The notes under the pieces are model-generated. The model was not told the origin of the DNA and did no database searches. It saw only the letters and a program-made list of their open reading frames with translations. Shown in pieces: positions 4,046 through 48,117 of a DNA stretch of 64,000 bases (position 1 is its first letter; the number at the start of each line of letters is the position of its first letter). The position numbers and the translations under genes were made by a program. Source of the stretch: Pecten maximus. Its lineage: Eukaryota. The DNA lies in the NCBI RefSeq assembly GCF_902652985.1, contig NC_047031.1:15128001-15192000 (forward strand), written 5' to 3'.

Positions 4046-4408
4046 CTTTGACCACCGTGACCAGAAGTACCTCATTACGCATGCCCACCCACTGTCCCCT
4101 CCTCCCCCCTCCCCCTCCCTACTGTAGTTGGGTTCACATCAGCTTGTGTCCACTATCGGGTCATGTGACGGATACGAATACACTACTCAAGTCCCCTACA
4201 CCCTCATATTGTGTTCATTGTTTATTCATTATACATTAATTTTTTTTACAAAACTAATTTAATATAACTTTATCAATCTAAAAAAAAAAAAAAAACAAAA
4301 AAAAAAACATTAACTTTTAAAAAAAACTCACTATTAAAAACTAAAAATAAATCAAAAAAAAAATCATATATATATATACTGTACATGCATTCATGACTCC
4401 CGAGTTCT

Positions 4409-4917
4409 TCACTGACTATCTATCAGATACTCAACGAATTCCACTTCAGACTGCGGAGGTGAACATGTTTCAAAAACATAATTATGATACGCGTGATTTA
4501 CAAGTAAATCGTCCTCATCAATATCGATATTGTCACTGCATAGAATATCTCTGGCTAGAACCTTCAATATTTGTCTAATTCCGTAGTCGGTGAAATGTTC
4601 ACTTGGATTTAAATATTCCAAAAGATATAAAAGTTTAATGTTGGAGATTTCGAAGGGTGAACTATTAAATATATTTTTCGAAACATGGTAGTTTTCGTAA
4701 AATTCAGGATAAAATTGCCTAAACATAGCTACAGCTTGCGGGTAGATGTCACCTTCCAAACATTGGATTAGACTTTTCTGATCCTCGTTACATATGTAGT
4801 ATCCCATGTAGTTGTATCGGAACACATCTATCGAGATCATGATCTGTTTGGTGAGGTATTTCATGCGAAGATCTAAGTCTTCATATGCCAGCTTTAGAAG
4901 CGAGGTCGGTGTCAGTT
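4409..4917 (-). CDS. Orphan terminal exon immediately downstream of the pPolB stop
   Basis: Pyrimidine tract plus ttctag| acceptor (phase 1) at 4919-4918; ELTPTSLLKLAYEDLDLRMKY... open to the stop at 4409. Confidence 0.6.
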
Positions 4918-4947
4918 CTAGAATGAATAAATGAAATAAATAATAAA

Positions 4948-5187
4948 TCAGAGAGTCACGTCGAGAGGCTCTGTGCGAATACCACAGGCGAGTACTTTTC
5001 TTTTCGGATAAAAGTTGCTGAATCCGTTTCTTTCCTGTGAGTATGTTACGATGCGATTATTAATCACCCGAAACCCTCTGTTTGTAGCCGAACGGAGCCT
5101 CGAATTGAAAAGTACGTCTTTATACATGGCGATTGGATGCCTTAAATGACGCTTGTTTATACCTTTACAGCTGAACTTGCTTTGCTT
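4948..5187 (-). CDS. Detached C-terminal 79 aa of the pPolB (absent from the ORF track)
   Basis: KQSKFSCKGINKR...YKDVL...NRGFR...TYSQERNGFSNFYPKRKVLACGIRTEPL*; joins in frame to ...SKTYCVEHVSETK at 9708. Confidence 0.9.
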   Translation of the reverse strand, partial: KQSKFSCKGINKRHLRHPIAMYKDVLFNSRLRSATNRGFRVINNRIVTYSQERNGFSNFYPKRKVLACGIRTEPLDVTL

Positions 5188-8100
5188 TTTGACACAAACG
5201 TAAGTTTGAGTCTATGTCAGCGCTTTTGAGGTGTAGCTGACAAAATCTACGATGCCCTCTGGCGGATACTGCCTTGGCCAATCTAACCGTTGCTTTACAG
5301 TAACTCCGTAATGCTATGCAGTAAATATTTGTAAATATCTTAAATATTCACGATAAAAAATGACATATAGTAAAGTTCAGCTATAAAAAAATTACCTTTT
5401 GTTTTGTTGACACAAACGTAGACACAAACGTAAGTTTGAGTCTATGTCAGCGCTTTTGAGGGCTCTGGCGGATACTGCTGTTGGCCAATCTAAACGTTGC
5501 TTTACAGTAACTCCGTAATGTTATGCAGTAAATATTTGTTTAACTTCACGATAAAAAATGACATACAGTGAAGTTCAGCTATTAAAAAAAATCACCTTTT
5601 GTTTTGTTGTATTTTAAAAGCTGACAGGACAATGTTTTTTTTTTGGCATTTTCGTTCGCTCTGACACAACTTCCACTGCCACTTCACAATCATATTCTAT
5701 CGCAAAAAAAAAATAGTCCCGTGACTTACGGAGTCAAATGCAACACTGCAGTTTCGTTAGATATATGACAAAACAACAGAACCTCACAAATAGATAGTTT
5801 TCAAAGTATTTAATTTAAGTATGTTCTGTCGATGATACGTAAGAATATTTTTCCGCGTTGAACGCATTAGATTTCACGCGGAATGATACAATCGACTTTT
5901 CGCTGGCGCCATATTGCTGCTTACCTGTGACCCGGAAGAAAAATCTACTAACATCACGCTGAATTTTCATCATCGACATCTATGTGTTTTTTTTCTTTGG
6001 TGGCATGTTACTGAATGGGTTATAATATTGATAAAGTTTCGTCGGAATATCGTTGTTATTTTGTACATTGAAAAATCACTCATCCAGCATCCGATTTTGT
6101 CCGCCATCTTTCAGTAATGTAAACAATAATAAAAGAAAGAGTAGGTGATCAAACCCAACTTTGAATGTCATTTTCTCACTGAAATATTAACTTGCATGTG
6201 ATTGATGTAGTCTGCAGATGGTTAGATTATATAGATGTTTTTTTACGAAAGAAAAAAAGTTGTCTATTCATCATGACAATATCACAACAACGGCAGTCGA
6301 GTACCATACGCATGTTTGCAAATAAAAAGTTAAATAAATTCTCACTGAATAGGGTTTCGAAATGTCAAATGGACTTGTGAATATTAATATTGACTTCGGA
6401 TCTATTGATTATATCCTACGTAATGCACATGAAGTTTTTCGTTTACAGAACGCGTACCGCATTAACGTGGCTGTCTGCATGCAGATGTAGACGTCACTGA
6501 AAATTTCATCTCTAATTATAGCGACTGATTCTTTTTTTCTAATATTCGTGATGGTTTAAAAAAAAATAGAAAATGATCTATCATTATCATTTGAAATATT
6601 ACATAACAGTCGAAGCATATTATAAAAAAGAAAGGGGTCTACGATGTACATCTACATAGACCTTTATTATGTTTGGTGGAGTTTTGAACGCTTCAGGGAC
6701 GGTTAAAGGGCAGTAACTCTTTAGAAAACACCATTTTTCATGGAAATGTACTGATTGCTAAATTTAACCAGAGATATTTAAAGGCAGTGGAAATGTTATA
6801 TTCCTACATCTGCGGTTTTTTCTGTCTTAAATCATTTCAGCTTCTGAATTAAATTAACCTTTAAACTAATGCACAGTAAAGTATTGATAAATCAATGCAA
6901 ATAATTTATTATCACTTAGATTTATTATTATTATTTAATCTTTTTTTCTTTACAACACTAGTACATATTATTTGAGAAGAACAGCAAAAATTACTAAGTT
7001 CATTATTCTTCTAAACAACAAAAATTTGTAAAACTTTTTTGTGTTGTGCATATATCCTATTGTGAAATAACTTGGCATGACTAAAGATAATAGTATTGTC
7101 TTGATGACTGTTACATACTATATCATAGGTTGAGTTAAATAATTATTTTCTTCTTGTCAATTATGGTAAATGGTGAAAACACATTTTTTTCATTTAAATT
7201 GTTAAGTCGGTTTAATGTTCAAATTCAGATTAATTTAATTAAAGCAACTATTAATAATGTATATATGTGTTAACTTTTCTGACAAAGTCTTCAAGTAACC
7301 TGATTATATTTGACAGAGAATCAAAATAAGTAATTTTGTTGTTAAGAATAGTGGGCTTAGCCATTTACAACTGTTTAGATTCTACTTAATAAGGTTTGAT
7401 TTTTAACATTTTGGCAAATTTATCTTATCAATATCCAATTTAGTTTTAAAGATAAGCAGTACTTCCATTTTTATGAAAATAAAAATTACTTCAGTGTTCT
7501 AATAATTTAAACACATGAACAATTGAAAGAAATACATTTGTATGAAAAGCATTCATAATGGACTTTGAAGAATGCTACTACATGTACAGTTCATCCAGTT
7601 TGGGCATTCGAACTACATTTTCATCTGACAGATGCTGCAGATTAAAAAAAAACCTCTGATTTTGAAATCGATGATATCAATACATATAGCTACATTCACA
7701 TCTCACTAACATTAATTAACATGATATATATACCATACATATATATATGTATCATGCAGTTACAGTTATGTATATGGTACATATACTATTGCGGAGAATA
7801 TTTGATGCAATGTACATAAGTGAAAAACAAAATTCCACTTCAAATTGATTTGAACAGTACATGTGAATGAATGTGTTTTTGTTGTATAGATGATTTGTAG
7901 CTACACAGTATGGAGTGTAAACATATAACGTAGAGTGCTATATGAAAATCATGTTCACTCTTAAGAAACTGTCTCAAGTCTGAGCTGATATGAGCATGTA
8001 ATTCTAAGTTTTGAATATAGTGCTTAGTTTAATGTGCCCGTCGTGATGGTATACCCTGCCCTGTCTACATCCGCATTCTACGCTTCCAGAGTCTGTTTAT

Positions 8101-9707
8101 CAGACCCAGGTGTTTTTAACCCACCATCATCAGATGGTGGGCTATTCAAATCGCCCTGCGTCAGTGGTCCGTCCGTCCCTCCATCCGTAAACAATTCTTG
8201 TTATCGCTATTTCTCAAAGTACTGAAGGGATCTTCTAAAATTTCATAGGTTTCTCTTGGTTTCCAGTTATGCATATTGCATTTTGAGACCAATCGGAAAA
8301 CAATATGGCCGACAGGCAGCCATCTTAGGTTTTGACAATTGAAGTTTGTTATTGCTATTTCTCAGAAAGCACTGAATTGATCTTTCTCAAATTTCATATG
8401 TAGGTTCCTCTTGGTGCTAACATTAGTTATGCATATTGCATTTTGAGACCAATCGGAAAACAATAAGGCCGATAGGCAGCCATCTTTGATTTTGTCAATT
8501 GAAGTTTGTTATCACTATTTCTCAGAAAGTGTTGACGGGATCTTTTTCAAATTTCATAAGTAGGTTCCCCTCGGTGCCTAGTTATGCATATTGCGTTTTG
8601 AGACTAATCGGAAAACAACACGGCCGACAGGCAGCCATCTTGGATTTGGACAATTGAAGTTTGTTATCGCAATTTCTCAAAAAGTGCTGAAGGGATCTTT
8701 CTAAAATTTGATATGTAGGTTTCCCTTGGTGGGTGGTTATGCATAATGCATTTTGAGACCAATCGGAAAACAATATGGCCGACAGGCAGCCATCTTAGGT
8801 TTTGACAATTGAAGTTTGTTATTGCTATTTCTCAGAAAGCACTGAATTGATCTTTCTCAAATTTCATATGTAGGTTCCTCTTGGTGCTTACATTAATTAT
8901 GCATATTGCATTTTGAGACCAATCGGAAAACAATATGGCCGACAGGCAGCCATCTTGGATTTGGACAATTGAAGTTTGTTATCACTATTTCTCAGAAAGT
9001 GCTGAAGGGATCTTTCTCAAATTTTATATGTAGGTTCCCCTCGGTGCCTAGTTATGGATATTGCATTTTGAGACTAATCGGAAAACAACATGGCCGACAG
9101 GCAGCCATATTGTATTTTGACAATTGAAGTTTGTTATCGCTATTTTACAGAAGGCACTGAAGGGATAGAACAATCTGCCACAAAATATCATTCAAAACCT
9201 TGACATAACATCATTCAAACCAGGGCTCGCACACACGATAAAATCCTAAAACAATCACACAAATGTTTTTAACCTGAGCTCTCTCTTATCTAAAAGCTGG
9301 TAGCTAGATGGGGCGCTACATCAAATGTATAAATATTTTTTCAAATGCTAATGATAATGATAATTTGTGAAGCGCTTATAGGCATGGGATCCTCAAAAGT
9401 TTGAAAAGAAAGGCCTCATTAATTTTACAGGTAATCTAGGACCTTCATATTACATCTACAACTACGTATACATTAACCCATTGAAGATGTCAAATAAGAT
9501 TACCCGAGTACCTATTCTGAAAATTAGCTGCCAAGACGCACTTGCAATCAAAAGTAGATATGAATTTCTTTTCTTGCCAATATTTTGTCCTAGTCCTAAT
9601 CAGGTATTGGTGATGTTCCATACAAAGTTGACCATGTCCCCACTAAACAAAAGCAGTTAAAATAATTTGTTTTCGTTTGTGTCTTCAGTACTTTCAGTAC
9701 TTTGATT
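5188..9707 (+). mobile_element. 4.5-kb non-autonomous Helentron/Helitron2-type element, copy 1 (inserted in pPolB)
   Basis: Asymmetric inverted repeat GACACAAACG (5191-5200) / CGTTTGTGTC (9674-9683), 3' hairpin agtact-ttc-agtact, TT at both junctions, second copy at 48118-52624. Confidence 0.8.
8113..9165 (+). repeat. Nested HINE/MITE with about 6 tandem 154-160-bp units
   Basis: T-run, palindrome cccaccatc-atca-gatggtggg, (gtcc)n, then repeats marked by ttttgagac at 8281, 8441, 8597, 8751, 8911, 9067; 3' truncated. Confidence 0.8.
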
Positions 9708-12700
9708 CTTGGTTTCTGACACATGCTCCACACAGTATGTCTTAGAACAAAGCGCTACCATCGCATCGCCCCTCATTTCCTCTTTAAAGAGACCGGGGGT
9801 CCTCCGCGTGTATGCTTTGTTCTCTGGTGAGCTTTGATCAGGAAACCAATGATTTTTTTCCTCTGCAAAGTCGTTCGCCATATCCGGTCTAACTAGTTCC
9901 TCTAAGTTTCCACTAGAAATCGCCATGTAATATGAATCAGTATCCATTTCGATTAACTCGAAATCTTCCCGAAGCAGGTACTTATCGAGACAATCGTAAT
10001 AGAAACTGAGCATGCGCAGTTTGGCGTATTGGAGAATGAAATATCCAATTTGTATGGGTATATCCATTCTGATTCTAGGTTTGGCACTTTGAATTTCATA
10101 CTGACCGTATCCGAGTTCCTGTAGAGTTCGAAAAAGTTTGGAGTTAACAACATCGTAAACTTTAGACTCCGAATCCAGATATCTAGTGTTGGTGTGCCTA
10201 TCCTTACGCATCAGCATGGATCCGTACGAAGCGTTCCCCGTTAACTTACTCGTCTCGCTGATGACGCTGAGACTCTGGTCTCTATCACCGGCGTGTCTCG
10301 CGTCGCTAATTTTTTCTGTAAAGTCTTTAAAACAGCTGTCGGGGGAGAACTCCAATACGGTGTACACGCGCGTGACCAACAGACCGTGTTCGAGATACCA
10401 CTTCAACAGCGGCGTGGCTATTAATATTTTCCTCGCGGCCATCGCACCTATGAGAAGTCGTCGCGGTTTTTTGGGTACATCCAGTTGCGTAGCGACATCT
10501 TGCATGTACTCGCCTATGTCATCGAGAGATACATCAGTGTTCCCAAAGATCGGTGACATTTCGGAGAACTTTTCGCTTAAGTGATCAGGAACGGAAATGT
10601 CGACTTCCACCGCGCCAAACAACTCATCGCGCAGGATATATTGGAGAATCTGATTCGGAGTCATGTTTTTCATTTTCTCGCTCATTCTGTGATAACTATC
10701 GCAGTGCGATTTTAGTACCGGGTTTTCGCGTAACATTTTGTCGAATTTGCACTCCCAGATATGTCGCATGGTATAACCCCGTGATGTGATGTAACGACGT
10801 CGCTTTTCGCTGTGTTTTTTACGCTTTCTCAGTAATACCAAGTTTGGATTTCGAATGCAACTATGAGAGTGATAAAAACACCCGTCAAACTCAAAAACCG
10901 TCTGAGAGCGACTGTCGAATCCATCCACCCGATACGGGCCGATGCGAAATTCTCTGTTGGAGTTTAACGCGTGTTTGATATTGATGTTTTCTTGTTTTGA
11001 GATCCAATCGAGCCATTTGAAGGCCTTGAGATACCTATCCCTTCTTTCTAGCGCGAAGTCGTTCTCCGCTCGTCTGACGGAACAGTATCCCGTAGGCATA
11101 TGTTCCGCCAGACATCCTAGATATAGCGCATTAGCATCCAGTCCTAATACACATTGACAAAGCTTTTCTCCGCCGCGAATGCGTGTTTTACAATTTTCGT
11201 GGTATCGGGTGAAAACTATGGACGGTCCGACGACGATATTCTTCTGAATCATTTGATGGATATCTTTGTCTTTTTCGTGAAACAGAGAAAAATGTGCTCT
11301 ACCTTTGAGCGATCGGAAAAGCAGCTGTCGAGCAACGCCGGGAACTGACATGGTGGATTTAAAAACGTCCACTTGTTCTGTCGAGTAGTAGTCGAGTAAT
11401 TTCTGTACGGCATCACGAAACGGCTCCACGTCGAGATTATTATAGAATATAAGATAGTCCTTAAACGTTTTCATATCTTCCCTCACCCACAGACTTTCCA
11501 GTTTTGAGTATTTCTCCTTACCGGACATAGGTTTCTGCGATAAATTCATTTCTTTAATTGCTTCGCGATGAGAATAACCGTCCTGTAACATGGCGTCGTA
11601 TATGGCGAGTTCTTCTTCAAGAACATTTAACTGTTTAAGGTTGCTATAGAAACTCTCGTACGGTGGTAAACGCGGGTAATCGAGTTTCTCTGGCGAATCC
11701 AAAAACTCGTAACAGAAATACCCCTTTCGGGTGCCTTCCGGGTGATACGCCCTGATAAACGAATCGTATGATGACCCGGCGGCTATAAAGTTACTGATAT
11801 CCAGAAACCTAAACTGCTCTGTTGCAATACACATGTATTGATTGACCTTTTTGACTACAAAATTCTCTTTAGAGCAAACTAATTGCAATGCTCTTGCAAG
11901 TCTCGTTTTTATCAGATTTACGTCATATTTCTGTGAGTTGAAACCAATTACTGGTATTTGTGAAATGTACAATTCCAGTTTCTCACCCACTCGACGTAAC
12001 TCTTTAAGTCTGTGTTTATCTTTTATATCATCATTATCACCATCATCATTATCACCACCATCATCGTGGTCATTCATCAGTTCCATTTCGACGGAATCAA
12101 TGATGTATCTATACCGGTCATACAGGTTTTCTCTTGCCACCGATTGTATTTCGCCTATGTATTCCACGAATTTGTCAACTAAAGAATCAGCATTGTTAGC
12201 TTCAACAATACAAACAGGATTCTCGTATCCCGGAACATTAGAAGAAATGCTACATGACACTGGAACGTGCTCTTGTAGATACTGGTCTGATTCGACGAGC
12301 ATTGCTTCGAAATCATAGGTTACAAAGTATGGATAAAAGCGATGCTCGTTATCGACGTCGTATCCGTAATTCTCTAACTCTTCGAACACTGTCGGCATAA
12401 CGCAATGATATCCCCCTGGGTAAATCAATTTCGTAACATTTTCGCATGAACGCTCGTGTCTGCGGAGATTATTCGCTGTATTGAATAGTTTCTCGCATGT
12501 ATTGCATTTGTATTTTCTGCTGTAACTATCCATTTTTGATATAAAACTTAAGAGTTCCTCAAAAATGTTCAGGTTCATGCTATGATCGTAGCGACTAGGA
12601 GTTCTCCAAACATACGAAACCTCTCCTTCTTCGCTTAACCTCAACACATTAATGTTCACTGCGAAATGTTTTTCTACTTTACCGAGTTCGGATAGCGGGG

Positions 12701-13669
12701 TGCCGACGTATTGTGTAGGAGGTATGGTCCCGCCCGTATAATCTGCGAATAACTGACGCGCAGTCTTTTCTATTTTTTTCACATCTCGCACTCTGTCGTA
12801 CGCCAGACAACGAAACAGACATAAGTTGTCGTTGAACTGCCGTCCCGAGTTCTGGTCATTTGTGAGTGAGATAATGGATCTGGATTTTTTTATATACCCG
12901 GGGAGATCTACTCGACTTCCCAACGGATAATTCATTCTAGTAACCACCCACCGGATATTCGTTACGCAGTAAACACGCCACTTAGTAGATGGTCTCTGTT
13001 TAAACATGGTCTCAATTATATCCATAGCCCGGAGTTTGTCTATGACTCGCTTCAAATCTGACATATTGCTAATAACAACGGGAGTTTCGAATACGGTCTC
13101 GTTATTATGAGCATAGAAATACCGCATGTCACCTTCAATATTGACCAAGGCAAATCCTAAAGATAGGTTTAATTTAAAGATGTTACCTTGTTCTCTAAAA
13201 ATATGTAGGAGTTGATCCTCAAGTATCTGCATTGAAAATGTTGTATTGGTTAATGAAAAATTATATTCATCTTGAATCTTACCTCGGCGATGAGGCATGT
13301 TTATTATAGGACTGAATTTGTTGATGAGTTCTTTAAAAGTTTCATCATCATGATCATCAGCATCATCATGATCGTCATCATCACCGTATTCGCTGTCTGA
13401 TCGTTTCTTTTTGTTTTGTGATCCCTCTTTTAGCTCTAAATTCCTCTCTTGGTGTCTCTCGTATATATGACTTGCCAATTCCGAGTCTGGTTCAAACTGA
13501 CTACCACAGTTTTTACAATGATGTTCAGCTCCTGTTGAGTCTGAAGAGGAACCCGCGCGAACATCTAATCTATAGTTATTATGAGTGGTACTTGTATGGG
13601 AGTCACTCGAGCTGTTTGTTTTTTTCGGGGGATTATGTATTTCCCGCCCTTGGATCTTACGCCCCCTTT
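9708..13669 (-). CDS. Protein-primed family B DNA polymerase (Polinton/adintovirus type), main exon, disrupted near the C-terminus
   Basis: ExoI YDFE, ExoII GFNSQKYD, ExoIII YNNLDV, motif A DANALY, motif B KLTGNASYG, motif C DTDS, GLFKEE, SKTY. Two zinc-finger-like motifs; VSR-like insert VDG...FEFDGCFYH...IWEC. Acceptor catgtag| at 13671-13670. Confidence 0.93.
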
Positions 13670-13849
13670 CTACATGCGTAACGCGATCAGAAAAAAAAAC
13701 AAAAACATGAATAATTTTACATAAAAACATACACCGAAAGTCCTTAATTAAAGCATCAGAGAGGTGACACATGATTATACATTCACCAAAATAAACTTAT
13801 TAAGTGATCTCTATTAATGAATGAATGGACTATCGAACAATTCGTCTAC

Positions 13850-14328
13850 CTTTGTGTGAGGATACTCTACTTCCTCTTCGTCTCCCTTCTTTTCCTGAGA
13901 CAGAGAAACGACATTTCGTTATTAAGAGCCAATTAAAACATGTATCCTGTTTATGTTTTACTATCAAATCAGATTACATTACAACGGAATAATTGCTTAC
14001 ATTTAACTTACCGGCAGCTGCTCTGACTTCATCTATTTCATCAATCATCTTCCGATAGTCTTCCATATCCTGTGAAACAAACACGATACGTTTAGTTTTC
14101 AGTAATGTATGAAAATATTATGAATGTTATAATCAATATACACGCATAGTTATCATATTATATAAGTACCTGTTTCATTTTCTCTCTCAAATCACGGCTT
14201 TTTCCCTCTAACTCGCTCCTCTTCTTTTCAAGACTATTCACTCTTCGCTTCTTCGCTTCTAAACGTCTTTCGTTGATTTCCTCCTTCTTTTCCAGTAGAA
14301 TTCTTTTGACTCTCTGTTCTTGTGCCAT
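13850..14328 (-). CDS. Three small coding leader exons (14328-14170, 14069-14012, 13894-13850), charged/coiled-coil
   Basis: ATG at 14328; GT-AG junctions; 159 nt (phase 0), 58 nt (phase 1), 45 nt (phase 1) with no stop; in frame with the pPolB exon. Confidence 0.65.
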
Positions 14329-14405: not shown

Positions 14406-15160
14406 TCACTACTTCACCTTGTCTCAATCACGCGACTTAGTTAGTAATTCGTGTATTATAAGACAGTTACGATCACATGTCTTCACTGTTTTATAGTCAT
14501 GAAAACAATTTTTCTACTTCTATCTACAGTCACGACGGAATCTGTCTTCAAATCAATCTAGCAACACATTACAATCATAACAATAACAATTTTCTACTCT
14601 CGGGGCAGTTTTAAAATATCTATCCACTACTTCTCGCTATGTCTCAATCAAATTAATTCCGTATGCAATTCATGTATTGTAGGACAGTTCCGCTCACACG
14701 ACTTTCCTTAGCGACCAGGTTGTCTTTATTATCTACGACAGTGATCCTGTCTTTAATGTAACAACAACGATCGACATAGGAAAGCTCCATTACACGAAAT
14801 TAATGAAGCATAAAACCTGCCATGGACTATGTACAGAGTCGTGCTCTAATAAATAAAAGGTCGTTTAATAACCAAGGTATTACACAAGCTTGACCGACAC
14901 TTAATTAACTCTCGTCTTGTCTGTTTCACAGTAATCAAAACAAATCTTCTCCTTCTATCTACAGTCACGACGGAATCTGTATTCAAATCAATCTAGCATC
15001 ACATTACAATCATAACAATAACAACTTTCTACTCTCGAGGCATTTTAATGTCACGCTCTATCCATTCACTACTTCACCTTGTCTTAATCACATGACTTCC
15101 GGTAGTCATTAATGCATTAAAGGATAGTTCCGGTCACGTGACTTTCCTTAGCAACCAGTT
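14406..15160. repeat. Subterminal duplicated modules (A x3, B x2)
   Basis: cactacttc...gtct(c/t)aatca...cagttcc near 14406, 14620 and 15060; tctatctacagtcacgacggaatctg...ctactctcg at about 14497-14615 and 14931-15048. Confidence 0.7.
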
Positions 15161-15203
15161 TTAGAAATAGCGTCCGGGGCAACGGCCTCCTGTATATACT
15201 ACT
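15161..15203 (-). repeat. Polinton-type terminus (5'-AGTAGTA...)
   Basis: tgtatatactact ends at 15203; next 6 bp GACATT would be the TSD half. Polinton TIRs typically start with AGT repeats. Confidence 0.7.
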
Positions 15204-21006: not shown

Positions 21007-21936
21007 TCAGTCACATACGTCTATCCTATTTGGATTGCATTCAAAGCATTGAAGTGCGCCCTCTTGATTTTGGTGGTCACTGCCCATTTCACAGAACTCA
21101 ACGTTGTCTAGAATGTCTCCGATATATTCATTCATAATGGTCATACAATCTTTCAGTTTCTCCCACTGCTCAAAGGACAGAGCAACACCTGCACGTGTAG
21201 GTTTCAACTCCCTTGTTTTGGCGTCCGGCATGAACCAACGCCGGATATGCACTTGAGCAAACCCAGTCGATAGTGATACATAATTGTTCCCACCTAGATG
21301 AATCTTGAGATCCACCCCGTTGCCTTCACGGTATTTCACAAGGGCCTGATCTACATCTTCAGCGTACCAAATTTGTAATTTTTTCCACTGTTGAGGGCTG
21401 AGTGCAACGCCTTTTTTAGTAGGATACAAGGTACCCTTTTCACTTGTATCGTATAGTCTGATATGAATCAGCGTTCTGCCTCGAAACTCATTGGCAACAA
21501 CGAAACAGTCATTGCCTATGTCCAGTTTGCAATAATCCCCATTAGGACGCCTTGTGTCAATCAGAGTTTCGTCAAGATCAAAGGCGGCAACAGGGTCTTG
21601 TTTTTTCCCCTCCTCATCAATCATCAACCGATTACATTCGTCTCTATCATATCTTGTTTCCATGCTTTCTGAGCGTACCACTCTAGTTGACATTGCTGTG
21701 TTGTGATCCTTCTCTTCTGAGAAAATATGGCGATATGATGGAAGGTTCCAACTTTTATACACATCAGAACAATACAAGGGGTTATACATTCTGGGGGCTA
21801 AACATCCCTGGGGGCTAAACATCCCTGGGGGGGCTATACATACCTACATGCTGCTTTCGTCATCCATATCTTCTTCTTCCTCCTCTTCAATAATTTCAGT
21901 GAGGACCGTCAGTAGTTGTACTGCCTTGGTCGCCAT
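21007..21936 (-). CDS. Double-PC4-domain protein with Cys/His tail; 5' part disrupted
   Basis: FVVANEFRGRTLIHIRLY...PTKKGVALSPQQW and YVSLSTGFAQVHIRRWF...PTRAGVALSFEQW; C-terminal C..HQNQ.G...CFECNP. An upstream ATG at 21936 is separated by a stop and 17-bp tandem repeats. Confidence 0.8.
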
Positions 21937-22480: not shown

Positions 22481-23217
22481 TGATCAGAGAGAAGAGAAAA
22501 GAAAGATCATGCAATGGGGGCAGCAGGTACAATTCTTACGCCCTACCTGCAGGGCAGATTAGAAAGAGGTCGATCTCAGAACTAAACAGTACATGGTAGA
22601 ATAGAAATAATCAACTTTGACTCGTGTATTGTTGTAGGATATCTTCGTCCTCGTTGTATATCCTGCAACAATACACGAATCATCGTTAATTATTTCTTAA
22701 GTAACATCCGGAGTGAAATGTGAGATTTACTTAATTGACTGTATAAACATTTCAAGGGTGGTAACTACATTTCGTCAAACTTATCGCTACAGTCGACGTA
22801 TTCGTATGGATAAACACCCTTTCTGAGCAATATTTCAGCTTCCGGTCTGTCATATTCATTTGCAAAATATTTGAATTTAGTCAACCCTTCTTTTGCAAGG
22901 TTTTCGGTAAGACATTCCAAGCTTTGAGACATGAATTGAAAGGAGTCGATGAAGCGTAGTGTTGTGTATTTGAATAGCCAGTTAGCCACGCTAATTATAT
23001 AAATAGTCCATTCCGGATCTACGGTTATTATGTTATACACGCCTCGCGTATGAATACGCACTGTTTGATTAATAAAAGTAGTTCGACAATATGGACTCCA
23101 CGTGTTGTGTTGATTATGAGAGCCAGACAGTTTCCTTCTTGGATTCCTCTTATTAATAATCCCCCTGGGAACATAACACAAATTGGCGACGAGGAACAAA
23201 CGAACCTGCAAAACACA

Positions 23218-23784
23218 ATGGCTAAAGGAGGCGTTGGAAAGGTCGGTATTTTTGATGAATCGATCGAAAGTTGGGAGTCATACACCGAACGGGTCGAGGT
23301 GTGTTTTATTGCAAATGGCGTCAAACCAGAAATCAAAGTGGCCTCGCTGCTTAGTTTGATTGGTCCTAAAACGTATGGGTTGCTGAAGAATCTACTGGCC
23401 CCAGCTAAACCATTAGATACGGGATACGATGATATTATAGCCCTGCTAGATAAACATTTAAATCCCAAACCATCCGAGATAGCGGAGAGGTTTCGCTTTC
23501 ATAAGAGAGAACAGCGCCCTGGTGAAGATGTTATGACTTATGTAGCAGAATTACGCAAGTTATCAATTCATTGTAATTTTGGAGATACCCTCCAGATCAC
23601 AATAAGGGATCGCCTAGTTTGTGGTTTACGCCAGGAAGCTATTCAACGTAAACTTCTAGCTGAAACGACACTAACATTAGACACTGCTATTCAGACTTCG
23701 GTTGCCATGGAAACGGCAGGGAAGGACGCAGTTGAACTCCAACGATCACATAATGACAAAGCATTTTTGCCATACCAGCCATGA
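23218..23784 (+). pseudogene. gag: Gag N-terminal/capsid part, truncated
   Basis: WESYTERV, AERFRFHKREQRPGE..YVAELRKL..HCNFG...IRDRLVCGL; no zinc knuckle follows. Confidence 0.85.
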
Positions 23785-25311
23785 CAGCTGCCAGGCTTCA
23801 ACGATATGCTGTGTTTTTGTCGGAACATTCCTATGATATCGAGTACAAAAACACTACAAAGCATTGTAACGCGGACGCGCTTTCGCGGCTTCCATTGAAA
23901 GGTAGTTCAGACGGAGCTACGGACCCTGTGGACCTTTTCTACACTGCACAGATCGAAACACTACCTGTAACTAGTGCACAAATTCGTCATGAGACATCTC
24001 GAGATTCCACGTTATCTCGAGTGTACGACATGTTAATGTTGGGAACATTGAAGAAAACAGATGACCCTGATATCATACCTTACATAAATCGACAGGATGA
24101 ACTTTCCGTACATCAAGGTTGTATAGTATGGGGTAACCGTGTAATAATACCAAGTGGCCTACAGGAAAGAGTTCTTACAGAACTACACGATGGACATCCA
24201 GGAGTGGTCCGGATGAAATCTGTTGCGAGATCCTATGTTTGGTGGCCAAACATTGATAAACAAATTGAACAGTTGTGTAGTTCATGTCTAGGATGTCAAC
24301 GATCGGGACACATGCCGAAATCTGCACCAGTACACCCTTGGGAGTGGCCTTCCAACCCATGGCAACGGATACATGTTGATTTCGCAGGGCCTTTCATGAA
24401 CTTCATGTTTTTAATAGTTATTGATGCGCATTCCAAATGGCCTGAGGTATTCACCATGAGATCCACTACAACCACGCTCACCATCGAGTTACTACGCAAT
24501 TTATTTGCTCGTCATGGTATTCCTGAGCAATTAGTCTCAGATAACGGACCTCAGTTAATTTATGAAGCAGAATGGTATTCGACATAGTACATCATCACCA
24601 TATCATCCGCGTACGAACGGACAAGCGGAACGTTTCGTCCAAACCTTCAAACAAGCCATGAAAAACGCAAAGGATGAAAAACGTACATTACAGCAAAAAA
24701 TGAGTGTATTTCTATGCAAGTACAGATCAACACCACATGCTATGACGAATGAGACACCCGCTAAGTTGCTCTTAGGCCGAAATATAAGGACACGGCTCGA
24801 CATTATGAAACTCGATTTGTCAGCTAGGGTATCATACGGACAAGACCGCATGAAATTGTCGCGTCACACAGGAGAAACTGTCCGACAGTTTTCTAAAGGC
24901 CAAAGTGTGATGGTACGCGATTATCGTTCGTCAGACAGGAAGTGGATTCCTGCATCTATCCACACCAAAACAGGACCTCTGTCCTACACTATTGACACTG
25001 GAACAGGAACTCTATGGAGACGTCATACAGACCAGCTTCGTGCTTGTACTGTAAAACCATCAGAGACGGATGTCACTACAATAAACTTACCGGAACCGGA
25101 AGTCGGTCCTATTACACCGGAAGTATCATCGACTCATCAGTCATCTGATAAAGCAACTATTTCTGACGGGAAGGAGGAAGTGGTACCTGTGATGCCTACA
25201 CATAAGCAAAAACAGACAATCATTTCCAAATCATCCCCATGTGTAAGTGTTGCTCCACGACGCTATCCAAAGAGAGAACATTCACGAGCTCCAGTGAAAT
25301 TGAACCTTTAA
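23781..25311 (+). pseudogene. pol: RNase H tail plus integrase, frameshifted near 24560
   Basis: ARLQRYA...NADALSRLP; HHCC (LHDGHPG...CSSCLGC); HVDFAGPF, SDNGPQ, then next frame SPYHPRTNGQAERFVQTFK. Confidence 0.9.
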
Positions 25312-26394
25312 TTAATTTTAGTGATATGTTATTGACAACACTGTGCAAGGGCATAATAATCCCTGTGTGTCAATAAGGGCCAAATAGGTTCTACTAAATC
25401 ATAAGTTTTTGTTTTAGTTTGTTTAGATGTTAAAGTTAAAGTTAATACTCTTATCAAAGTAATTAATATTCGTATGTTATGAACAGTAAAAGAAAAATCC
25501 ATAGTTGTAATCTAGTCAAGATTCTCCAAGTAATATCTCAGAGACATTTATATTCCAAGTTATATCTCAGAGACATTTATATTCCAAGTTATATCTCAGA
25601 GACATTTATATCACAAAAGTAATTGTTAAATCGAAAAGGGGGAGGAGTGTTGTGTATTTGAATAGCCAGTTAGCCACGCTAATTATATAAATAGTCCATT
25701 CCGGATATACGGTTATTATGTTATACACGCCTCGCGTATGAATACGCACTGTTTGATTAATAAAAGTAGTTCGACAATATGGACTCCACGTGTTGTGTTG
25801 ATTATGAGAGCCAGACAGTTTCCTTCTTGGATTCCTCTTATTAATAATCCCCCTGGGAACATAACACGTAGATCATCCATACTAAACGAAATGTATTTTT
25901 CCATGTTGTTGGGTATACATGTAATGTTGTGATCTTTAAATAAACCTACAGCTTCACATAAAATGTGATCGTCAAACCCTTTTAAGTAATGAAATATGAC
26001 GGGAACAAAAGAAGGGTCTTTAAAGCGGGGCAAAAAGGACGGCCTCCCGTGCGTGCGACATGTATGCGTGTGGTGAGTGCGCATGTGTGTTTTGGGAAGC
26101 TGCGGTATGTTCGTGTTAAGTCTCCTTGTGAAAAGGGGCCCATTTTGCAAAATTGATATTAACTTCTTCTCTGGACCTAAGCAATGCATGACATTGATAT
26201 TTCAGTGGCAGTATCCGTAGGTGGCTGGGATTCAAATGTATACAAATGATGGGGCCGAACCCCACCCCCTAGCCTTATGTTGGAAGTTTCAGACAGATCA
26301 TTGTTAGTTGTTCTGATTGTATTTTTGTCTGTATTATTATGATCTATATTCATCCATTTTTTTCTATGACCTTCCATAATGTTTGTTTCCCCAG

Positions 26395-33840: not shown

Positions 33841-34692
33841 CTTTACCATTATTTGCATATAAAATATTTCTTCTTATATATATATTCTTGATTTTTTACA
33901 TTTCTCTCGGTACATGAGCGATATCCATTGCTTACTTTCAGAGAAAAAGTTGTTTATATTAATTTAGCCAAATTGACCCCTTTTGGCTCCACCACTCAGC
34001 CCCTCGGGGGATTAGCCCCACCATTTGCACAATTTTGAAATTTGACCCTAAAGGGATGCTCACAGTCAAATATGAGCAATATCCATTACTTGGTTTCAGA
34101 GAAGTTGTTTATATCATTTAGACAAATTGGCCCAATTGGCCACTTTCCAATTCAGCGCCACCTGGCGGATCATAATCCAAGATGGCGGCGTATGGTGTGT
34201 CCGTGTCACAGCACATGTTTTTAGTGTTTTATCAGCGCTACGCGTCAAATTAGACTTTTTCCAGAAAATCTTCGTGCTTAAATGCGTATATAGGTAAGTC
34301 TTTATTTTGGAATGATTTTATAAGGAAATAAGGCGATATAAGACCGATATACACTTGTTCAAATACCCCAGGTGAGAAACCCTGCAGAATGCTATGTAAC
34401 TCATTTACACAGGTGTAGCATTAAAAATCGGTCATTGTATGATTCACGATTCATTTATTAGTTCTTGATTTGTATAGATCGAATAGAATCAGTCACTGCT
34501 TATGAAATGACGGCATCATAACGATGATAGCGAAATAAATAACGATATATCCATCAATACTATTTGCACCAGGTAACATTACAGGTAATTTTGAATGCCG
34601 CCATTTTATATTTCGAGCAGGTAGAGTCACGTGACATCAAGAGGTTGATAATGACAAAACATGATGATGAAAATATTTTTTTAACCAAAAAT

Positions 34693-34951
34693 AAACAAGA
34701 GGTCCATGGGGCCTGTATCGCTCACCTGGTTGGATTTGACCAAATGTCAAAATAATGTTCATGTTCAATTCCTTTTGTTTGTTAACCTCAAACAATGCTA
34801 TTGGTTATAGCGTGGGTATCCCAACTGCTTTAAAGAAATAATGAAGTCCAGACTCTCTGAGTTTACAACATGCATTTATAACTTTATGACTAGTAGTGAT
34901 TTAAAGGAATTACCTCTATTTCCCATATGGGGCCCCACCCCTTTTGCCCCT

Positions 34952-34991
<40 letters not shown>

Positions 34992-37676
34992 CCATTTATG
35001 CAAAATCTGTTCCCCTTCCCCCAAGAATGTTTCTGACCAAATTGGGTTCAAATCCATTCATAACTTTATGACTAGTAGCGATTTAAAGGAATTACTTCTA
35101 TTTCCCCTATTGGGACCCGCCCATTTGGCTCCTCGGGGGTCAGTCACCATTTATGCAAAATCTTTCCCCTTCCCCCAAGAATGTTTCTGACCAAATTGGG
35201 TTGAAATCCATTCATAACTTTATGACTAGTAGCGATTTGAAGGAATTTCCTCTATTTCCCAATTAGGCCCCGCCCCTTTGGCCCCTTGGGGGTCAGAGTA
35301 ACCATTTATGCAAAATCTGTTCCCATTCCCTGAAGGATGTTTCTGACCAAATTTGGTTCAAATCCATTCATAACTTTATGACAAGTAGCGATTTTAAGGA
35401 ATTGCCTCAATTTCCCCTATTGGGCCCCGCCCCTCAGGCCACTTGGGGGTCAGAGTCACCATTTATGCAAAATCTGTTCCCCTTCCCCCAAGAATGTTTC
35501 TGACCAAATTGGATTAAAATCCATTCATAACTTTAAGACTAGTAGCGATTTAAAAGAATTACCTCTATTTCCCCATTAGGCCCCGCCCCTTTGGCCCCTT
35601 GGGGGTCAGAGTCACCATTTATGCAAAATCTGTTGCCCTTCCCCCAAGAATGTTTCTTACTAAATTGGGTTCAAATCCATTTATAAATGTATGACTAGTA
35701 GCGATTCAAAGGAATTACCTCTATTTCCCATATGGGGCGCCGCCCCTTTGGCCCCTTGGGGGTCAGAGTAACCATTTATCCAAAATCTGTTCCCTTTCCC
35801 TGGAGGATGTTTCTGACTAAATTGGGTTCAAATCCATTCATAACTTTATGACAAGTAGCGATTTTAAGGAATTGCCCCAATTTCCCCTATTGGGCCCCGC
35901 CCCTCAGGCCCCTTGGGGGTCAGAGTCAGCATTTATGCAAAATCTGTTCCCCTTCCCCCAAGAATGTTTCGATTAAATTGGGTTCAAATCCATTCATAAC
36001 TTTATGACTAGTAGCGATTTAAAGGAATTACTTCTATTTCCCCTATTGGGACCCGTCCCTTTGGCTCCTCGGGGGTCAGAGTCACCATTTATGCAAAATC
36101 TGTTCCCCTTCCCCAAAGAATGTTTCTGACCAAATTGGGTTGAAATCCATTCATATCTTTATGACTAGTAGCGATTTGAAGGAATTACCTCTATTTCCCC
36201 ATTAGGCCCCGCCCCTTTGGCCCCTTGGGGGTCAGAGTAACCATTTATGCAAAATCTGTTCCCCTTCCCCAAAGGATGTTTCTGACCAAATTGGATTAAA
36301 ATCCATTCATAACTTCATGACTAGTAGCGATTTAAAGGAATTACCTCTATTTCCCCATTAGGCCGCGCCCCTTTGGCCCCTTGGGGGTCAGAGTCACCAT
36401 TTATGCAAAATCTGTTCCCCTTCCCTGAAGGATGTTTCTGACCAAATTGGGTTCAAATCCATTCATAACTTTATGACAAGTAGCGATTTTAAGGAATTGC
36501 CTCAATTTCCCCTATTGGGCCCCGCCCCTCAGGCCCCTTGGGGGTCAGAGTCACCATTTATGCAAAATCTGTTCCCCTTCCCCCAAGAATGTTTCTGACC
36601 AAATTGGGTTGAAATCCATTCATAACTTGATGACTAGTAGCGATTTGAAGGAATTACCTCTATTTCCCCATTAGGCCCCGCCCCTTTGGCCCCTTGGGGG
36701 TCAGAGTAACCATTTATGCAAAATCTGTTCCCCTTCCCTGAAGGATGTTTCTGACCAAATTGGGTTCAAATCCATTCATAACTTCATGACAAGTAGCGAT
36801 TTTAAGGAATTGCCTCAATTTCCCCTATTGGGCCCCGCCCCTCAGGCCCCTTTGGGGTCAGAGTCACCATTTATGCAAAATCTGTTCCCCTTCCCCCAAG
36901 AATGTTTCTGATTAAATTGGGTTGAAATCCATTCATAACTTTATGACTAGTAGCGATTTGAAGGAATTACCTCTATTTCCCCATTAGGCCCCGCCCCTTT
37001 GGCCCCTTGGGGGTCAGAGTAACCATTTATGCAAAATCTGTTCCCCTTCCCCAAAGGATGTTTCTGACCAAATTGGATTAAAATCCATTCATAACTTCAT
37101 GACTAGTAGCGATTTAAAGGAATTACCTCTATTTCCCCATTAGGCCCCGCCCCTTTGGCCCCTTGGGGGTCAGAGTCACCATTTATGCAAAATCTGTTCC
37201 CCTTCCCCAAAGGATGTTTCTGACCAAATTGGATTCAAATCCATTCATAACTTTAGGACAAGTAGCGATTTAAAAGAATTACCTCTATTTCCCCATTAGG
37301 CCCCGCCCCTTTGGCCCCTTGGGGGTCAGAGTCACCATTTATGCAAAATCTGTTCCCCTTCCCCATAGAATGTTTCTGACCAAATTGGGTTCAAATCCAT
37401 TCATAACTTTATGACTAGTAGCGATTTAAAGGAATTGCCTCAATTTCCCCTATTGGGCCCCGCCCCTCAGGCCCCTTGGGGGTCAGAGTCACCATTTATG
37501 CAAAATCTGATCCCCTTCTGCCAAGGATGTTTCTGACTAAATTTGGTCAAAATCCAATAAGAACTTTTTGACTAGTAGCGATTTGAAGCAAATGTTGACG
37601 GACGACGGACGACAGACGACGGACGCCGCGCCATGACATAAGCTCACCGGACCTTCGGTCCAGGTGAGCTAAAAAA
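34693..37676 (-). mobile_element. Full HINE with about 17 tandem 156-157-bp units, nested in the ISL2EU
   Basis: subTIR gctcacctgg (34720) / ccaggtgagc (37660), palindrome agctcacc-ggaccttcggtcc-aggtgagct, (gacg)n, hairpin end aacaagaggtccatggggcct. Confidence 0.88.
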
Positions 37677-38392
37677 GATTTTTAGCAGTCATGTTGATGT
37701 TTTGTTTTTGGCCATGTTTTATGTTATAATGACAAATATATATATCTTCAGTTATGTTGTTTATTAGGCCTATTTAAGAACAGGGTAAAATCTGCTTTTG
37801 AATATTTTGATATATATATGGCTCATAGGAATCAATGAGGATATTCAGAGTTACCTATTTAATATAACATATATTTCATGAGTATGACAGATTTATTTAT
37901 AAATTATATTTTCACGAGTGTGTACCACAAGTGTTATCTAATTATAAAATCTGAAATACAAGTGATATATATTTTATATCAAACGAGAAATTATTAAATT
38001 TTCTGTTTATTGCATTTGCAGTTAAACTTAAAATGCATTTGCAGACATCTGAAAGCACATTGAATGTATCTTTTATGTTAAGGCATTGAATTCAAGAAAT
38101 CTTACATTTGATTATGACTAGTGATTTTATCAGATTTCTTCCATGCAGTACAGTCAAAATCTTATATCATCACTAGTGATAATATAGGATTTCTGTCAGT
38201 AAAATGCAATAAATACATGCATATAGTCTTAATGGTTTATTATAATATAAACAGCTAATATTACCATGGAAAAGCTTAATATGTTATGATATCATAAGCT
38301 GTACTATTATTTATTGATAAGCTTTAACCTTATTAATCTTCATGTGTCTATTTATTTTTGTTTACTTATATAGGTACCAACAACAAGTAACC

Positions 38393-40102
38393 ATGTCTCG
38401 AAAAAGAAATCATGAGGAGATGAACCAGTCTGCATCTACTGACCGTACACTGCACTACATTTGCAAGACCCCAGAAGATCCAGAAAAAATAATGGTTAGA
38501 TGTGATCTCTGTGATGATTGGTTCCATCCATCTTGTGTTAATCTTGATGAAGAAGAAGCTAAGAACATTGCAAAATGGTTTTGCCCTGGCTGCTGTGAAC
38601 TAATGAAAATAAACCCTTTAATTTCAAAAAAAGGACTCCTTAGTTTTCAAGGACGCGTGGCACCAACGACAGGATGGGGTGAAGATTTCCCTATTGAGGA
38701 CATCGATGAAAGTGTTCTTGACTTTGTGAAAACAAAACGCCACAGGGTTGAAGGCTGGACACTATTCCGAGAGGGAAAAATAACAGGTTTGAGCAGTACC
38801 ACAACTGGAAACTTGATATATTTCAGAGGTCAATGCCAAGCTGCAATGAAGCAGAAAACTTATAACATATACATGTGCCTGAAACATGGAGGAACAAAAT
38901 TAAAGTGGGGGACATGCTCATGTCCAGCAGGAATAGATGGGCAATGTAAGCACCTTGTAGCCACATTGTTCTGTCTTATTGACTTTCACCGCCAGGATGT
39001 AAAAACAATGCCCGATGTGAAAACATGCACAGACAAGTTGCAATTGTGGCATGTTAGAAAACCAATGTCTGATGAGCCTCTTCTGTTCAGAGACATCAAC
39101 TTTGTCAAACATGATTCGTTTAAGACCGTGAAGGATTTGTGTGCAGCTGCAGCTACTCATAACCCTGTGCCCGAGTTTGCCAGATCTGTTACAGGTAATG
39201 ATCTAACCAAACTTGTTAACCTGTTTGATGCATCAGGTTTAAACCTTCCAGTGTTGGACACCATTCGAGAAAACAATTTCAAACCTGTGGCATGTAGGCA
39301 ACGCTGTGATGTAAACCTAGACGCAGATTTGTTTGAGATGGTTGACAATACTAGCTTCAGTGAAATAGAATTGCCACAGGCACTCAAATCAGACATCCAG
39401 CAACATTACCTAGTTAATGTGAGTGTAGACACCCAAAGAGCCAAGTTCATAGAGAAAAATACAAGGCTACAGAGCAAGACTTCATTCTGGTTTAATGAGA
39501 GACAATACCGTATTACTGCATCTAACTTTGGTGTTTTTTGTCGCCTGAAAAATACAACAGACCCTTTGAATACGTTTCAACAAAAGAAGTTTTTCACGTC
39601 AAAAAGTGTCCGTCACGGTATCAATTATGAAGCTCAAGCCTTGGCTTTGTATCAAAAGGAAAAACCATGTGCTAGTTCACCAGTTGGTCTTGTTGTAAAC
39701 CCCAAACTACCCCATCTTGGAGTGACACCTGATAGACTAGTAAAAGTCAACAATGAGATTAGACTGGTGGAAATCAAATGTCCATACTCTGTATTCAAGA
39801 AGAAAAGTATATTATCACAAATGAAGGAGAAAAACTTTTATTTGGAAAAAAACCCGACAACTGGTGAAATCCAACTCAAAAAATCCCACGCCTACTTTTA
39901 CCAAGTGCAAGGACAACTGAATTTGTGTGGAATAGAAAAGTGTGACTTTGTAGTATTCGTTCCTCCGGAAGACATTGCCATAGTAGAGATACATCGTGAT
40001 TCAGAGTTTTTCTGTTCTAACATGTTGCCTAAACTCAACAGTATCTATTTCAGCCATTTGCTCCCACATTTTGTTGATTGTCTCCGCACAAAAGATCAGT
40101 GA
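38393..40102 (+). CDS. PHD finger - SWIM - YqaJ (lambda exonuclease-like) protein
   Basis: MVRCDLCDDWFHPSCV...WFCPGC; CSCPAGIDGQCKH; WFNERQYRITASNFG, HGINYE, TPD, EIKCPY, YYQ-like YFYQVQGQL. Uninterrupted ORF. Confidence 0.92.
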   Translation: MSRKRNHEEMNQSASTDRTLHYICKTPEDPEKIMVRCDLCDDWFHPSCVNLDEEEAKNIAKWFCPGCCELMKINPLISKKGLLSFQGRVAPTTGWGEDFPIEDIDESVLDFVKTKRHRVEGWTLFREGKITGLSSTTTGNLIYFRGQCQAAMKQKTYNIYMCLKHGGTKLKWGTCSCPAGIDGQCKHLVATLFCLIDFHRQDVKTMPDVKTCTDKLQLWHVRKPMSDEPLLFRDINFVKHDSFKTVKDLCAAAATHNPVPEFARSVTGNDLTKLVNLFDASGLNLPVLDTIRENNFKPVACRQRCDVNLDADLFEMVDNTSFSEIELPQALKSDIQQHYLVNVSVDTQRAKFIEKNTRLQSKTSFWFNERQYRITASNFGVFCRLKNTTDPLNTFQQKKFFTSKSVRHGINYEAQALALYQKEKPCASSPVGLVVNPKLPHLGVTPDRLVKVNNEIRLVEIKCPYSVFKKKSILSQMKEKNFYLEKNPTTGEIQLKKSHAYFYQVQGQLNLCGIEKCDFVVFVPPEDIAIVEIHRDSEFFCSNMLPKLNSIYFSHLLPHFVDCLRTKDQ

Positions 40103-41348
40103 AGGTCTCGACTTGTATTGTTTAGTACAAGAGGCACATGCAATACCCATCCAGACAGACATTTTAAATACAAACTTTACTTTATGTATATTGAAAAATG
40201 GTGTGTAGCCATATATTTTCGCATGTTGACTAGATTCTTTCAATGTGTTATCATAATTATCACATGTCTGTGTAGATTTACATACAACATGTACAAAAAC
40301 AGTTTGTATTGTAAGTGAAAACATGATTCTAAAGTGACTTGGGGAAAACAAAATTTGTTCTAATTTTTACATAGGATATTTCATACATTATATTCCTTTT
40401 TTGCACTCGTGACTGACGCATATACATGTAATGTTCAATATGATAGTTAGTGTAGGACATATGCATGTCTCGTGTTAAAAGCACAATGTACATATATATT
40501 GATGGTATCAGTGTACACTAGTACAATCTTAAATCATGTATGGTAGCATAAAATTGAATACAAGCACAAGTCATACAAATTATGTCCATTGTCACAATTG
40601 TACTGTACAGAATTTTTGTTGAAATACTGTTATTAGTTTCATAGTCATTAAGACATTGAATTGTGATATTTTTTAATTATGACTTGTAACATGTAAAAAT
40701 TAAAATGAAAGTTGTTACTATTGAATTTTGTATTTTTAGTCCACATTCAATTTCACAGTTTCTTAGTTAAATTATTTATTTATAGTCATTACTTGTAAAG
40801 AGTAAGTTTAAAAATATGTGAACAATATTCATTTCCTGCGCTATGCTGACATTTCATATACATGGTTCAATATAGTTTATAATTTAGACAGATTATTTTT
40901 ATATTTTCAACAGTGAAAAAAGATTAACTTAAGAAAGGATGCAGTGAAATCCAAGTTGTCCTATATCATCACTTGTGATAATATAAAATTTCTTCAATAC
41001 ATTTTTATAGATCTAGACAACAACTGGAATATTACAATGTATGACTAGTGATAAATGTTTGATGCATATCTATGATGATATGAATATCGGTTGGACAATT
41101 TCTGATATTTCATTTGTAGAAATGTATTATTTACAAACTTTTTTGCTTGGAATTTTTTCATGGTATTACTACTATGACAGTATTTGAAAATGCATTTTAT
41201 TGTCACAAAAATTGTACAAAATTCAACATGATATTTTTGAAACTTTGATCACCATGGAAACATGTTTTATATGTATCATATTATAAAGTGTTCATATATG
41301 AAAAGAATCTGACATTTCATTAAACATGAGAGCACTATCAATGTGTCT

Positions 41349-48020: not shown

Positions 48021-48117
48021 GTCTACCTGGAGTCATATATAATCAGACTATATCATATATACAATAATATGTATATTAATACGTTGGTGCTTTTAATGTA
48101 ATGTATATAAATAGATT

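Follow-up and report, generated by a model that had tools for sequence, protein, structure and literature searches.

A charged, probably spliced leader that may serve both the polymerase and a downstream accessory exon in a scallop Maverick/Polinton

Results

The minus strand of a 64,000-nucleotide stretch of the Pecten maximus genome (NC_047031.1, positions 15,128,001 to 15,192,000; hereafter the window) carries a decayed, dead copy of the left arm of a Maverick/Polinton element. Three small charged leader exons precede the exon for its protein-primed DNA polymerase of family B (pPolB), and an ATG-less exon of unrelated sequence, referred to here as the orphan, follows the polymerase stop codon. 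We propose, with a probability of about 0.6 judged from comparison of the copies of the element, that this is a unit resembling adenovirus E2B in which the leader would be joined to either of two alternative acceptors, and that the orphan encodes an accessory protein.

Organisation of the unit

An initial annotation of the window had placed three small charged exons ending in phase 1, and their coordinates and phases were confirmed. Exon E1 (14328-14170) begins with ATG, encodes 53 amino acids in 159 nt and ends in phase 0 with the donor CAG/GTACTT; 57% of its residues are charged and it includes a KKRR motif. E2 (14069-14012, 58 nt, donor CCG/GTAAGT) sets phase 1, and E3 (13894-13850, 45 nt, phase 1-1) is symmetric, hence skippable, and has the weakest donor of the three, AAG/GTAGAC. 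The exons sum to 262 nt and so leave phase 1. Each of the two acceptors opens a long frame in that phase only, as had been annotated: acceptor 13669 opens 1336 codons (34 and 3 in the other phases) and acceptor 4917 opens 168 (1 and 11).

The 5' part of the pPolB exon (13669..9708), with zinc finger, terminal protein (TP), vOTU, Exo and Pol motifs, runs up to an insertion, beyond which lies the 3' end (5185..4948), made up of the last 78 codons (5184-4951) and the true stop, TGA at 4950-4948; an alternative stop at 9657 was rejected, since this position falls inside the insertion. The second acceptor does lie 30 nt past the stop, the T-rich spacer between them (4947..4918, 30 nt) providing a polypyrimidine tract and AG and containing no AATAAA. 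The orphan terminal exon (4917..4409) continues in phase 1 for 168 codons, and its first Met is codon 18. The first AATAAA past the pPolB stop, at 4226..4221, is a candidate shared poly(A) signal, with no counterpart at the matching place in copies B, D, E and H described below. Upstream of the leader ATG, a subterminal tandem duplication of approximately 435 bp (14479..15161) is likely to be the candidate promoter region, and the AGTAGT terminal motif at 15203..15198 marks the left end of the element.

Sister copies and identity of the element

Searches of the genome (G000) with the orphan returned 13 loci, the window copy (W) and copies A, B, C, D, E, G, H, I, J, K, M and N; a further locus, F, has the leader only and no orphan. 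Four subfamilies can be distinguished, W/A/C, B/D/E/G, H/I/M and J/K/N, with 62-80% DNA identity between them at the pPolB 3' end in the 10 copies compared, G, M and N having been placed by other comparisons.

The Polinton-like identity first proposed is well supported, and the unit belongs to a Maverick/Polinton. Its polymerase is a protein-primed family B enzyme with Exo and Pol motifs and 69 homologues, the nearest database polymerases being named as scallop proteins, together with an Elysia protein; at 10895 it has a FEFDGCFYH motif, which we tentatively take to be VSR-like. Sister copies encode an RVE integrase (PF00665, E = 5e-12 in copy B, G000:C3976:126710-143650, and 6e-13 plus a chromodomain in copy K, G000:C46:26139-45439) that is not present in the remaining stretch of the window copy. 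Pfam matches to capsid and ATPase genes fell under the cut-off in the sisters (PF21738, E = 0.0013; AAA/IVa2 weak), and a packaging ATPase and a double-jelly-roll capsid gene were identified, in sister copies only, by tblastn to ORFs of related elements (E = 1e-53 and 1e-103). Copies B and K have AGTAGT at both ends and perfect duplications of the target site, 6 bp long; the window has the left end only, and no right end was found within it or the adjoining 20 kb. The sisters also carry breaks, the B integrase and the K ATPase each being split between frames. No adenain/Ulp1-like maturation protease was detected by an 8-sequence profile in 7190 frames from 8 element stretches (best E = 1.7), although introns or divergence could hide one. 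We note that in B and K, bounded by both ends and duplications, a PC4-like gene sits close to the right end; in B it is split into two pieces.

The leader and the polymerase acceptor

It is very probable, from comparison of the copies, that the leader is spliced onto acceptor 13669, and in this respect the initial annotation is well supported. Leader exons with canonical sites were recognized in W, B, H and K (3, 3, 4 and 4 exons respectively), with GT at 14/14 donors (6-8 of 9 consensus matches) and AG at 14/14 leader and polymerase acceptors. The boundaries in B, H and K were picked by eye from the consensus and the phases computed afterwards: E1-type exons end in phase 0, E2 measures 58, 58, 64 and 64 nt in W, B, H and K, and the five E3-type exons (45, 69, 60, 27 and 33 nt) are all multiples of 3, so that each of the four leaders leaves phase 1. 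Between W and B, E1 shows strong purifying selection, the proportions of synonymous (pS) and non-synonymous (pN) differences being 1.06 and 0.26 (p = 2e-15). Further support comes from a C2H2 zinc finger (13523..13452) that is kept in W, B, K and D and, broken, in H and I, with pS > pN in 4/4 tested pairs (p = 1e-5 to 0.03). In W, B, K and D it precedes the first Met of the exon, no ATG ahead of it is conserved, and a selected domain in this position requires a start codon further upstream. Charged residues make up 46-64% of the leader, which has almost no Pro or Gly and is therefore probably helical.

Several observations weigh against this splicing. Selection on E2 is only borderline (p = 0.05-0.06), A, C and F have damage at some of their leader acceptors, and K[KR]x[KR] motifs are found in W, B and H1a but not in K1. 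Only in two of four copies (W and K) does the polymerase acceptor give a clean entry into the long frame, that of B being out of register with the long ORF and that of H leading into a frame that stops after 29 amino acids. In addition, RefSeq model P0003 is identical to the K ORF from an internal Met129 and has no leader, and P0004 and P0005 likewise lack one. E1 of copy K matched none of 359 candidate database proteins, which is weak evidence; the leader exons had no match in 80 metagenome loci with related pPolBs, and P0003 had no relative in IMG/VR.

Leaders of a similar kind were seen by eye in related Mavericks of other hosts, as multi-exon spliced zinc-finger leaders at L105:1800-3600 and L123:1-950, and there is an apparent intron, again judged by eye, inside pPolB at L116 near 8870. 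Given the leaders at L105 and L123, a spliced leader alone is probably common, and the second acceptor is probably the distinctive part of the scallop unit.

The second acceptor and the orphan exon

That the leader is also spliced onto acceptor 4917 is a less secure proposal, which we nevertheless favour. The orphan lies directly after the pPolB stop in 11 of the 13 loci, M having lost the spacer and N holding only the 3' part, and across the four subfamilies the exon begins 30-45 nt past the stop, where an AG after a T-rich tract coincides with the onset of similarity at the protein level. This boundary retains an AG in 10 of 11 copies, the acceptor being deleted in C. It is in phase 1 in 8 of the 11 (W, A, B, D, E, G, H and I), representing three of the four subfamilies, and as these include both deep clades this phase is probably ancestral. 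J and K count against the proposal: their acceptor is in phase 0, and 9 nt upstream of it is an in-frame ATG. The orphan in these copies would depend on this ATG, on a phase-1 AG at codon 15 that is weaker, or on the E1 donor, which is in phase 0. Thus, of the conservation of both acceptors and their phase that had been put forward as a check on the unit, the site is kept in diverged copies but the phase is not in J and K. The site stands out beyond chance: with a filter for pyrimidine-rich, AG-free tracts, 3 of 62 AGs passed in the stretch of tail and orphan, 4917 among them, and 1 of 248 in the polymerase exon; the threshold was set after the sites had been seen, and D, E and K fall just below it.

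One alternative explanation, which we regard as unlikely, is that the leader serves pPolB only and that the orphan is a gene apart, translated from an ATG of its own (Met26 or, in J and K, the new ATG), either on a transcript that starts at an internal promoter or by re-initiation once the pPolB stop has been passed. Met26 is invariant in all six unbroken frames, J and K have the in-frame ATG at the acceptor, every listed contig that crosses the site is unspliced (see below), and AT-rich spacers mimic acceptors by composition. However, the ATG of the J/K type is out of frame in H and I, the boundary AG is retained as described, and codons 1-25, which lie ahead of the only Met common to all unbroken frames, are selected like the rest of the exon (pS > pN in 3/3 pairs, p = 0.013-0.019, the pairs not being independent). 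Within this segment P3, L6, L14 and L21 are invariant in 6/6 unbroken frames at 23-62% identity. Against this, codons 1-18 alone gave p = 0.055-0.22 and the H-K pair was not significant (p = 0.13).

Another possibility, less probable still, is that the partner spliced to the orphan is a small exon that has escaped notice, or a donor inside pPolB, which would fuse the orphan to the TP or to pPolB. Single copies do have strong internal donors (K at codon 1331 in phase 0; one each in D and H in phase 1), and the phase change in J and K shows that the partner donor can differ. These donors are not common to the subfamilies, however: 48 internal GT sites are kept across at least four lineages, and by the simple match count over 9 consensus positions that gives 6-8 for the leader donors, the best of them scores 6/9 (in phase 2) and the best in phase 1 only 4/9. 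Among these copies the leader is the only conserved source of strong predicted donors upstream of the orphan. As the orphan is selected up to its acceptor and no strong donor is conserved in pPolB, the leader is the likeliest 5' partner. Two further candidates were rejected, a short intron starting at a GT among the final codons of pPolB, a site not kept in B, D, E and H, and a branch point overlapping the pPolB stop, for which YTRAY is found only in W, D and E and is partly forced by the stop.

Contig evidence

No spliced contig was seen for 13850>13669 or 13850>4917, the junctions proposed as a check by the initial annotation. The contigs come from runs X1, X2, X3 and X5, none of which is recorded as RNA; contigs drop rare variants and may represent DNA or pre-mRNA, and stretches without contig cover were not counted as evidence. 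As they stand, these data count on the side against splicing, yet they fall short of either establishing or excluding it. There was no spliced joint among the window joints listed (15 of 91, all in satellite), and 0/5 joints in copy K had GT..AG ends. Contigs cross acceptor 4917 unspliced in X1, X2 and X5, W intron 1 is unspliced in X3 and W intron 3 in X1, and an X3 contig crosses the K orphan acceptor unspliced. The polymerase mRNA would in any case be expected to run through the orphan unspliced. The earlier idea of one unit making two proteins survives as the best available reading, through the shared leader, with no junction seen; the terms 'coiled coil' and 'replication protein' attached to it have the standing of inferences.

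Nature of the orphan

The orphan had been suggested as a candidate terminal or accessory protein. That it is the terminal (priming) protein of the element, equivalent to the preterminal protein (pTP) of adenovirus E2B, is in our view very improbable. The N-terminal 376 residues of pPolB were modelled with AlphaFold2 from a 66-sequence alignment (pLDDT 86). A predicted TP domain, D1 (13280..12930, residues 89-205), has a little-finger (LF)/PAD-like fold and matches the LF/PAD of Y-family polymerases, including 4IR1 (Z 4.8-5.9, rmsd 3.0-3.8, 92-99 residues aligned); a predicted vOTU protease domain follows (12911..12516, residues 212-343) and matches OTU proteases (Z up to 8.7, rmsd 3.6, 113 aligned), its catalytic Cys and His being kept in 66/66 and 65/66 aligned proteins. 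Viral matches to the model were pPolBs of adintovirus, MELD, bidnavirus-like and mavirus origin. The Z values are middling, yet the predicted domain order and the classes of match equal those given for the TP/vOTU assignment in the sections consulted of Krupovic et al. (PMC11161782). The pPolB is thus already predicted to carry a fused TP and vOTU, and on this ground the orphan is unlikely to be a terminal protein. Its profile did not match the pPolB N-terminal profile (probability 0.2%), and its own model is all-helical with low confidence (pLDDT 52), the fold expected of PRD1-like terminal proteins being alpha/beta and LF/PAD-like, so that the structural comparison with pTP folds suggested earlier yields a TP-like LF/PAD fold for the pPolB N-terminus and only a low-confidence helical model for the orphan. 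What speaks for a terminal protein is the analogy of layout only, one coral polinton with a separate TP gene in the portion of PMC11161782 covered, and the fact that phi29-type TPs differ in fold.

Fold searches with the low-confidence model gave only generic helical matches, which does not show a new fold. No relative outside the genome was found by word search among 23 candidates, by HMMER against 1.84 billion representatives (0 matches), in JGI metagenomes (0/581 stretches) or in IMG/VR (0/65); the best match in the 80 metagenome loci with related pPolBs had E = 0.048, Pfam, PDB sequences and the ESM Atlas (matches under 0.9) gave nothing useful, and exact look-up of 10 ATG-started forms found none. 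In related elements of other hosts, among the loci listed, the gene after pPolB is usually that of the ATPase, that of the integrase or a capsid/protease gene in convergent orientation. The orphan is likely to be a lineage-specific accessory exon that encodes an accessory protein.

The gene after the orphan (4045-3752, minus strand) opens with a signal-peptide-like stretch and a Cys-rich exon ending at a GT donor. Matching stretches occur in A, B, C, D, E, G, H, I, J, K and N, and further on in K and E come pieces rich in Thr and Ser and a basic-tailed stretch that resembles a membrane helix. Present in all four subfamilies, the gene appears to encode a surface protein and to be rich in introns.

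Decay of the window copy and neighbouring elements

The pPolB of the window is split by a young, non-autonomous Helentron/HINE-like insertion of 4.5 kb (5186..9707), absent from the initial annotation, and this copy is consequently dead. The insertion carries inverted repeats in subterminal position, lies in a T-rich target that is not duplicated, and includes an internal ~156-bp tandem array and a 3' palindrome, the hairpin being judged by eye and the ends and flanks compared in both window copies; these features are shared with Helentron HINEs, whose hallmarks are given in the part of PMC7492417 consulted as subterminal inverted repeats, a 3' palindrome, a T-rich target without target-site duplication and an internal tandem array. 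The second copy, at 48116-52624, is 99% identical, and genome-wide 40/40 scored candidates match at 97-100%; this is a very young family of at least 40 copies. A contig of run X1, otherwise near-identical, lacks the insertion, which is therefore probably polymorphic, and an X2 contig spans the insertion end, the pPolB tail and the orphan. Further decay is seen in the loss of one of the two vOTU catalytic residues kept by its relatives, and beyond position 3486 the window copy no longer matches its closest sisters.

Elsewhere in the window, 21007-21843 (minus), 22765-23277 and 25716-26201 contain a PC4-domain ORF (PF02229) along with fragments that resemble another pPolB family, interrupted by a Gypsy-like element with 222-bp direct repeats (22958-25867). 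A Harbinger-like transposon (34129-43519) with inverted repeats and a ~156-bp satellite array encodes a DDE_Tnp_4 transposase (41349-42359) and a PHD plus YqaJ exonuclease ORF (38321-40102); a second copy lies approximately 47 kb away, beyond the window start. At 1-2913 an 847-bp direct repeat, extending past the window start, brackets a short intron-containing ORF that is PC4-like by eye, and beside the window, at L056:8056-9684, a kinase-like ORF adjoins a fragment of another pPolB family.

Discussion

We propose that a single transcript would start from a promoter near the left terminal inverted repeat, and that the host spliceosome would join E1-E2, with or without E3, to 13669, giving a leader-zinc finger-TP-vOTU-polymerase protein from an mRNA that carries the orphan as 3' untranslated region. 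Skipping to 4917 would instead give a leader-orphan product, and the choice of acceptor would set the ratio of the two. Both products may gain from the charged leader a signal for nuclear import or a helix for dimerisation. The orphan of the J/K subfamily would be joined to E1 at its phase-0 donor or start at a new ATG of its own. Perhaps, and this fuller picture is tentative, a scallop Maverick lineage operates an E2B-like splicing unit in which a coding, charged helical leader is attached to the polymerase or to a new helical partner, with co-import or dimerisation through the leader, titration by acceptor choice, and one subfamily rewired to a different donor by a change of acceptor phase.

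Mavericks have been described and annotated as intron-free, and small spliced exons and ATG-less exons are missed as a result; in one copy the RefSeq model leaves out the first 128 codons of the ORF, and the orphan had no match among database proteins. Should the second junction be real, alternative splicing would yield two proteins from a polinton replication unit, in parallel to E2B and with a fused TP, and would show the depth to which such an element relies on nuclear host splicing. The orphan is a testable candidate for an accessory protein under selection across four subfamilies. Neither a spliced pPolB leader nor an alternative terminal exon was found in titles and abstract openings on Polinton, Maverick or adintovirus, although Repbase, subscription journals and supplements could hold one. 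A look-up of such terms likewise found none in PMC11161782, PMC8502044, PMC8097293, 10.1101/2023.08.22.554363 or 10.64898/2026.10.13.758929; the element maps of Jeong et al. may show the orphan ORF.

With known Mavericks/Polintons the element shares the pPolB Exo and Pol motifs and, in its sisters, the RVE-chromo integrase, ATPase, double-jelly-roll capsid gene, AGTAGT ends and target-site duplications of 6 bp. It differs in its predicted spliced coding leader and downstream ATG-less exon, and no maturation protease was detected in these copies. Intact vertebrate Mavericks are reported, in the sections consulted of Barreat and Katzourakis (PMC8097293), to be without introns, and a mollusc pPolB2 class with a VSR insert is described in the part covered of Jeong et al. 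(bioRxiv 10.1101/2023.08.22.554363). The polinton pPolB as presented in the corresponding part of Krupovic et al. (2024; PMC11161782) is a TP-vOTU-Exo-Palm polyprotein; the scallop protein agrees with it in domain order and in structural matches (Y-family LF/PAD, OTU) and differs in the zinc finger and predicted spliced charged leader that precede these domains. The strings 'splic' and 'intron' have 0 occurrences in PMC11161782.

In adenovirus, the mRNAs for pTP and the viral polymerase (Ad-pol) have their first three exons and 3' end in common and differ in the junction to the terminal coding exon, according to the portion consulted of PMC11304566, and the E2 products are confirmed in that of PMC7851563. 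The scallop unit is alike in its probable shared 5' exons, its distant alternative acceptors and its common downstream 3' end. The order is reversed, with the polymerase first, and the second product would be unrelated to pTP. The shared coding part of the leader amounts to approximately 87 amino acids here and only a few residues in adenovirus E2B. Moreover, an E2B-type unit has a TP separate from the polymerase and an inactive vOTU, whereas here the predicted TP is fused to the polymerase and the predicted vOTU is intact in the family, its catalytic residues being kept. The layout would therefore work like E2B and yet, with its TP fused to the polymerase, is not an E2B.

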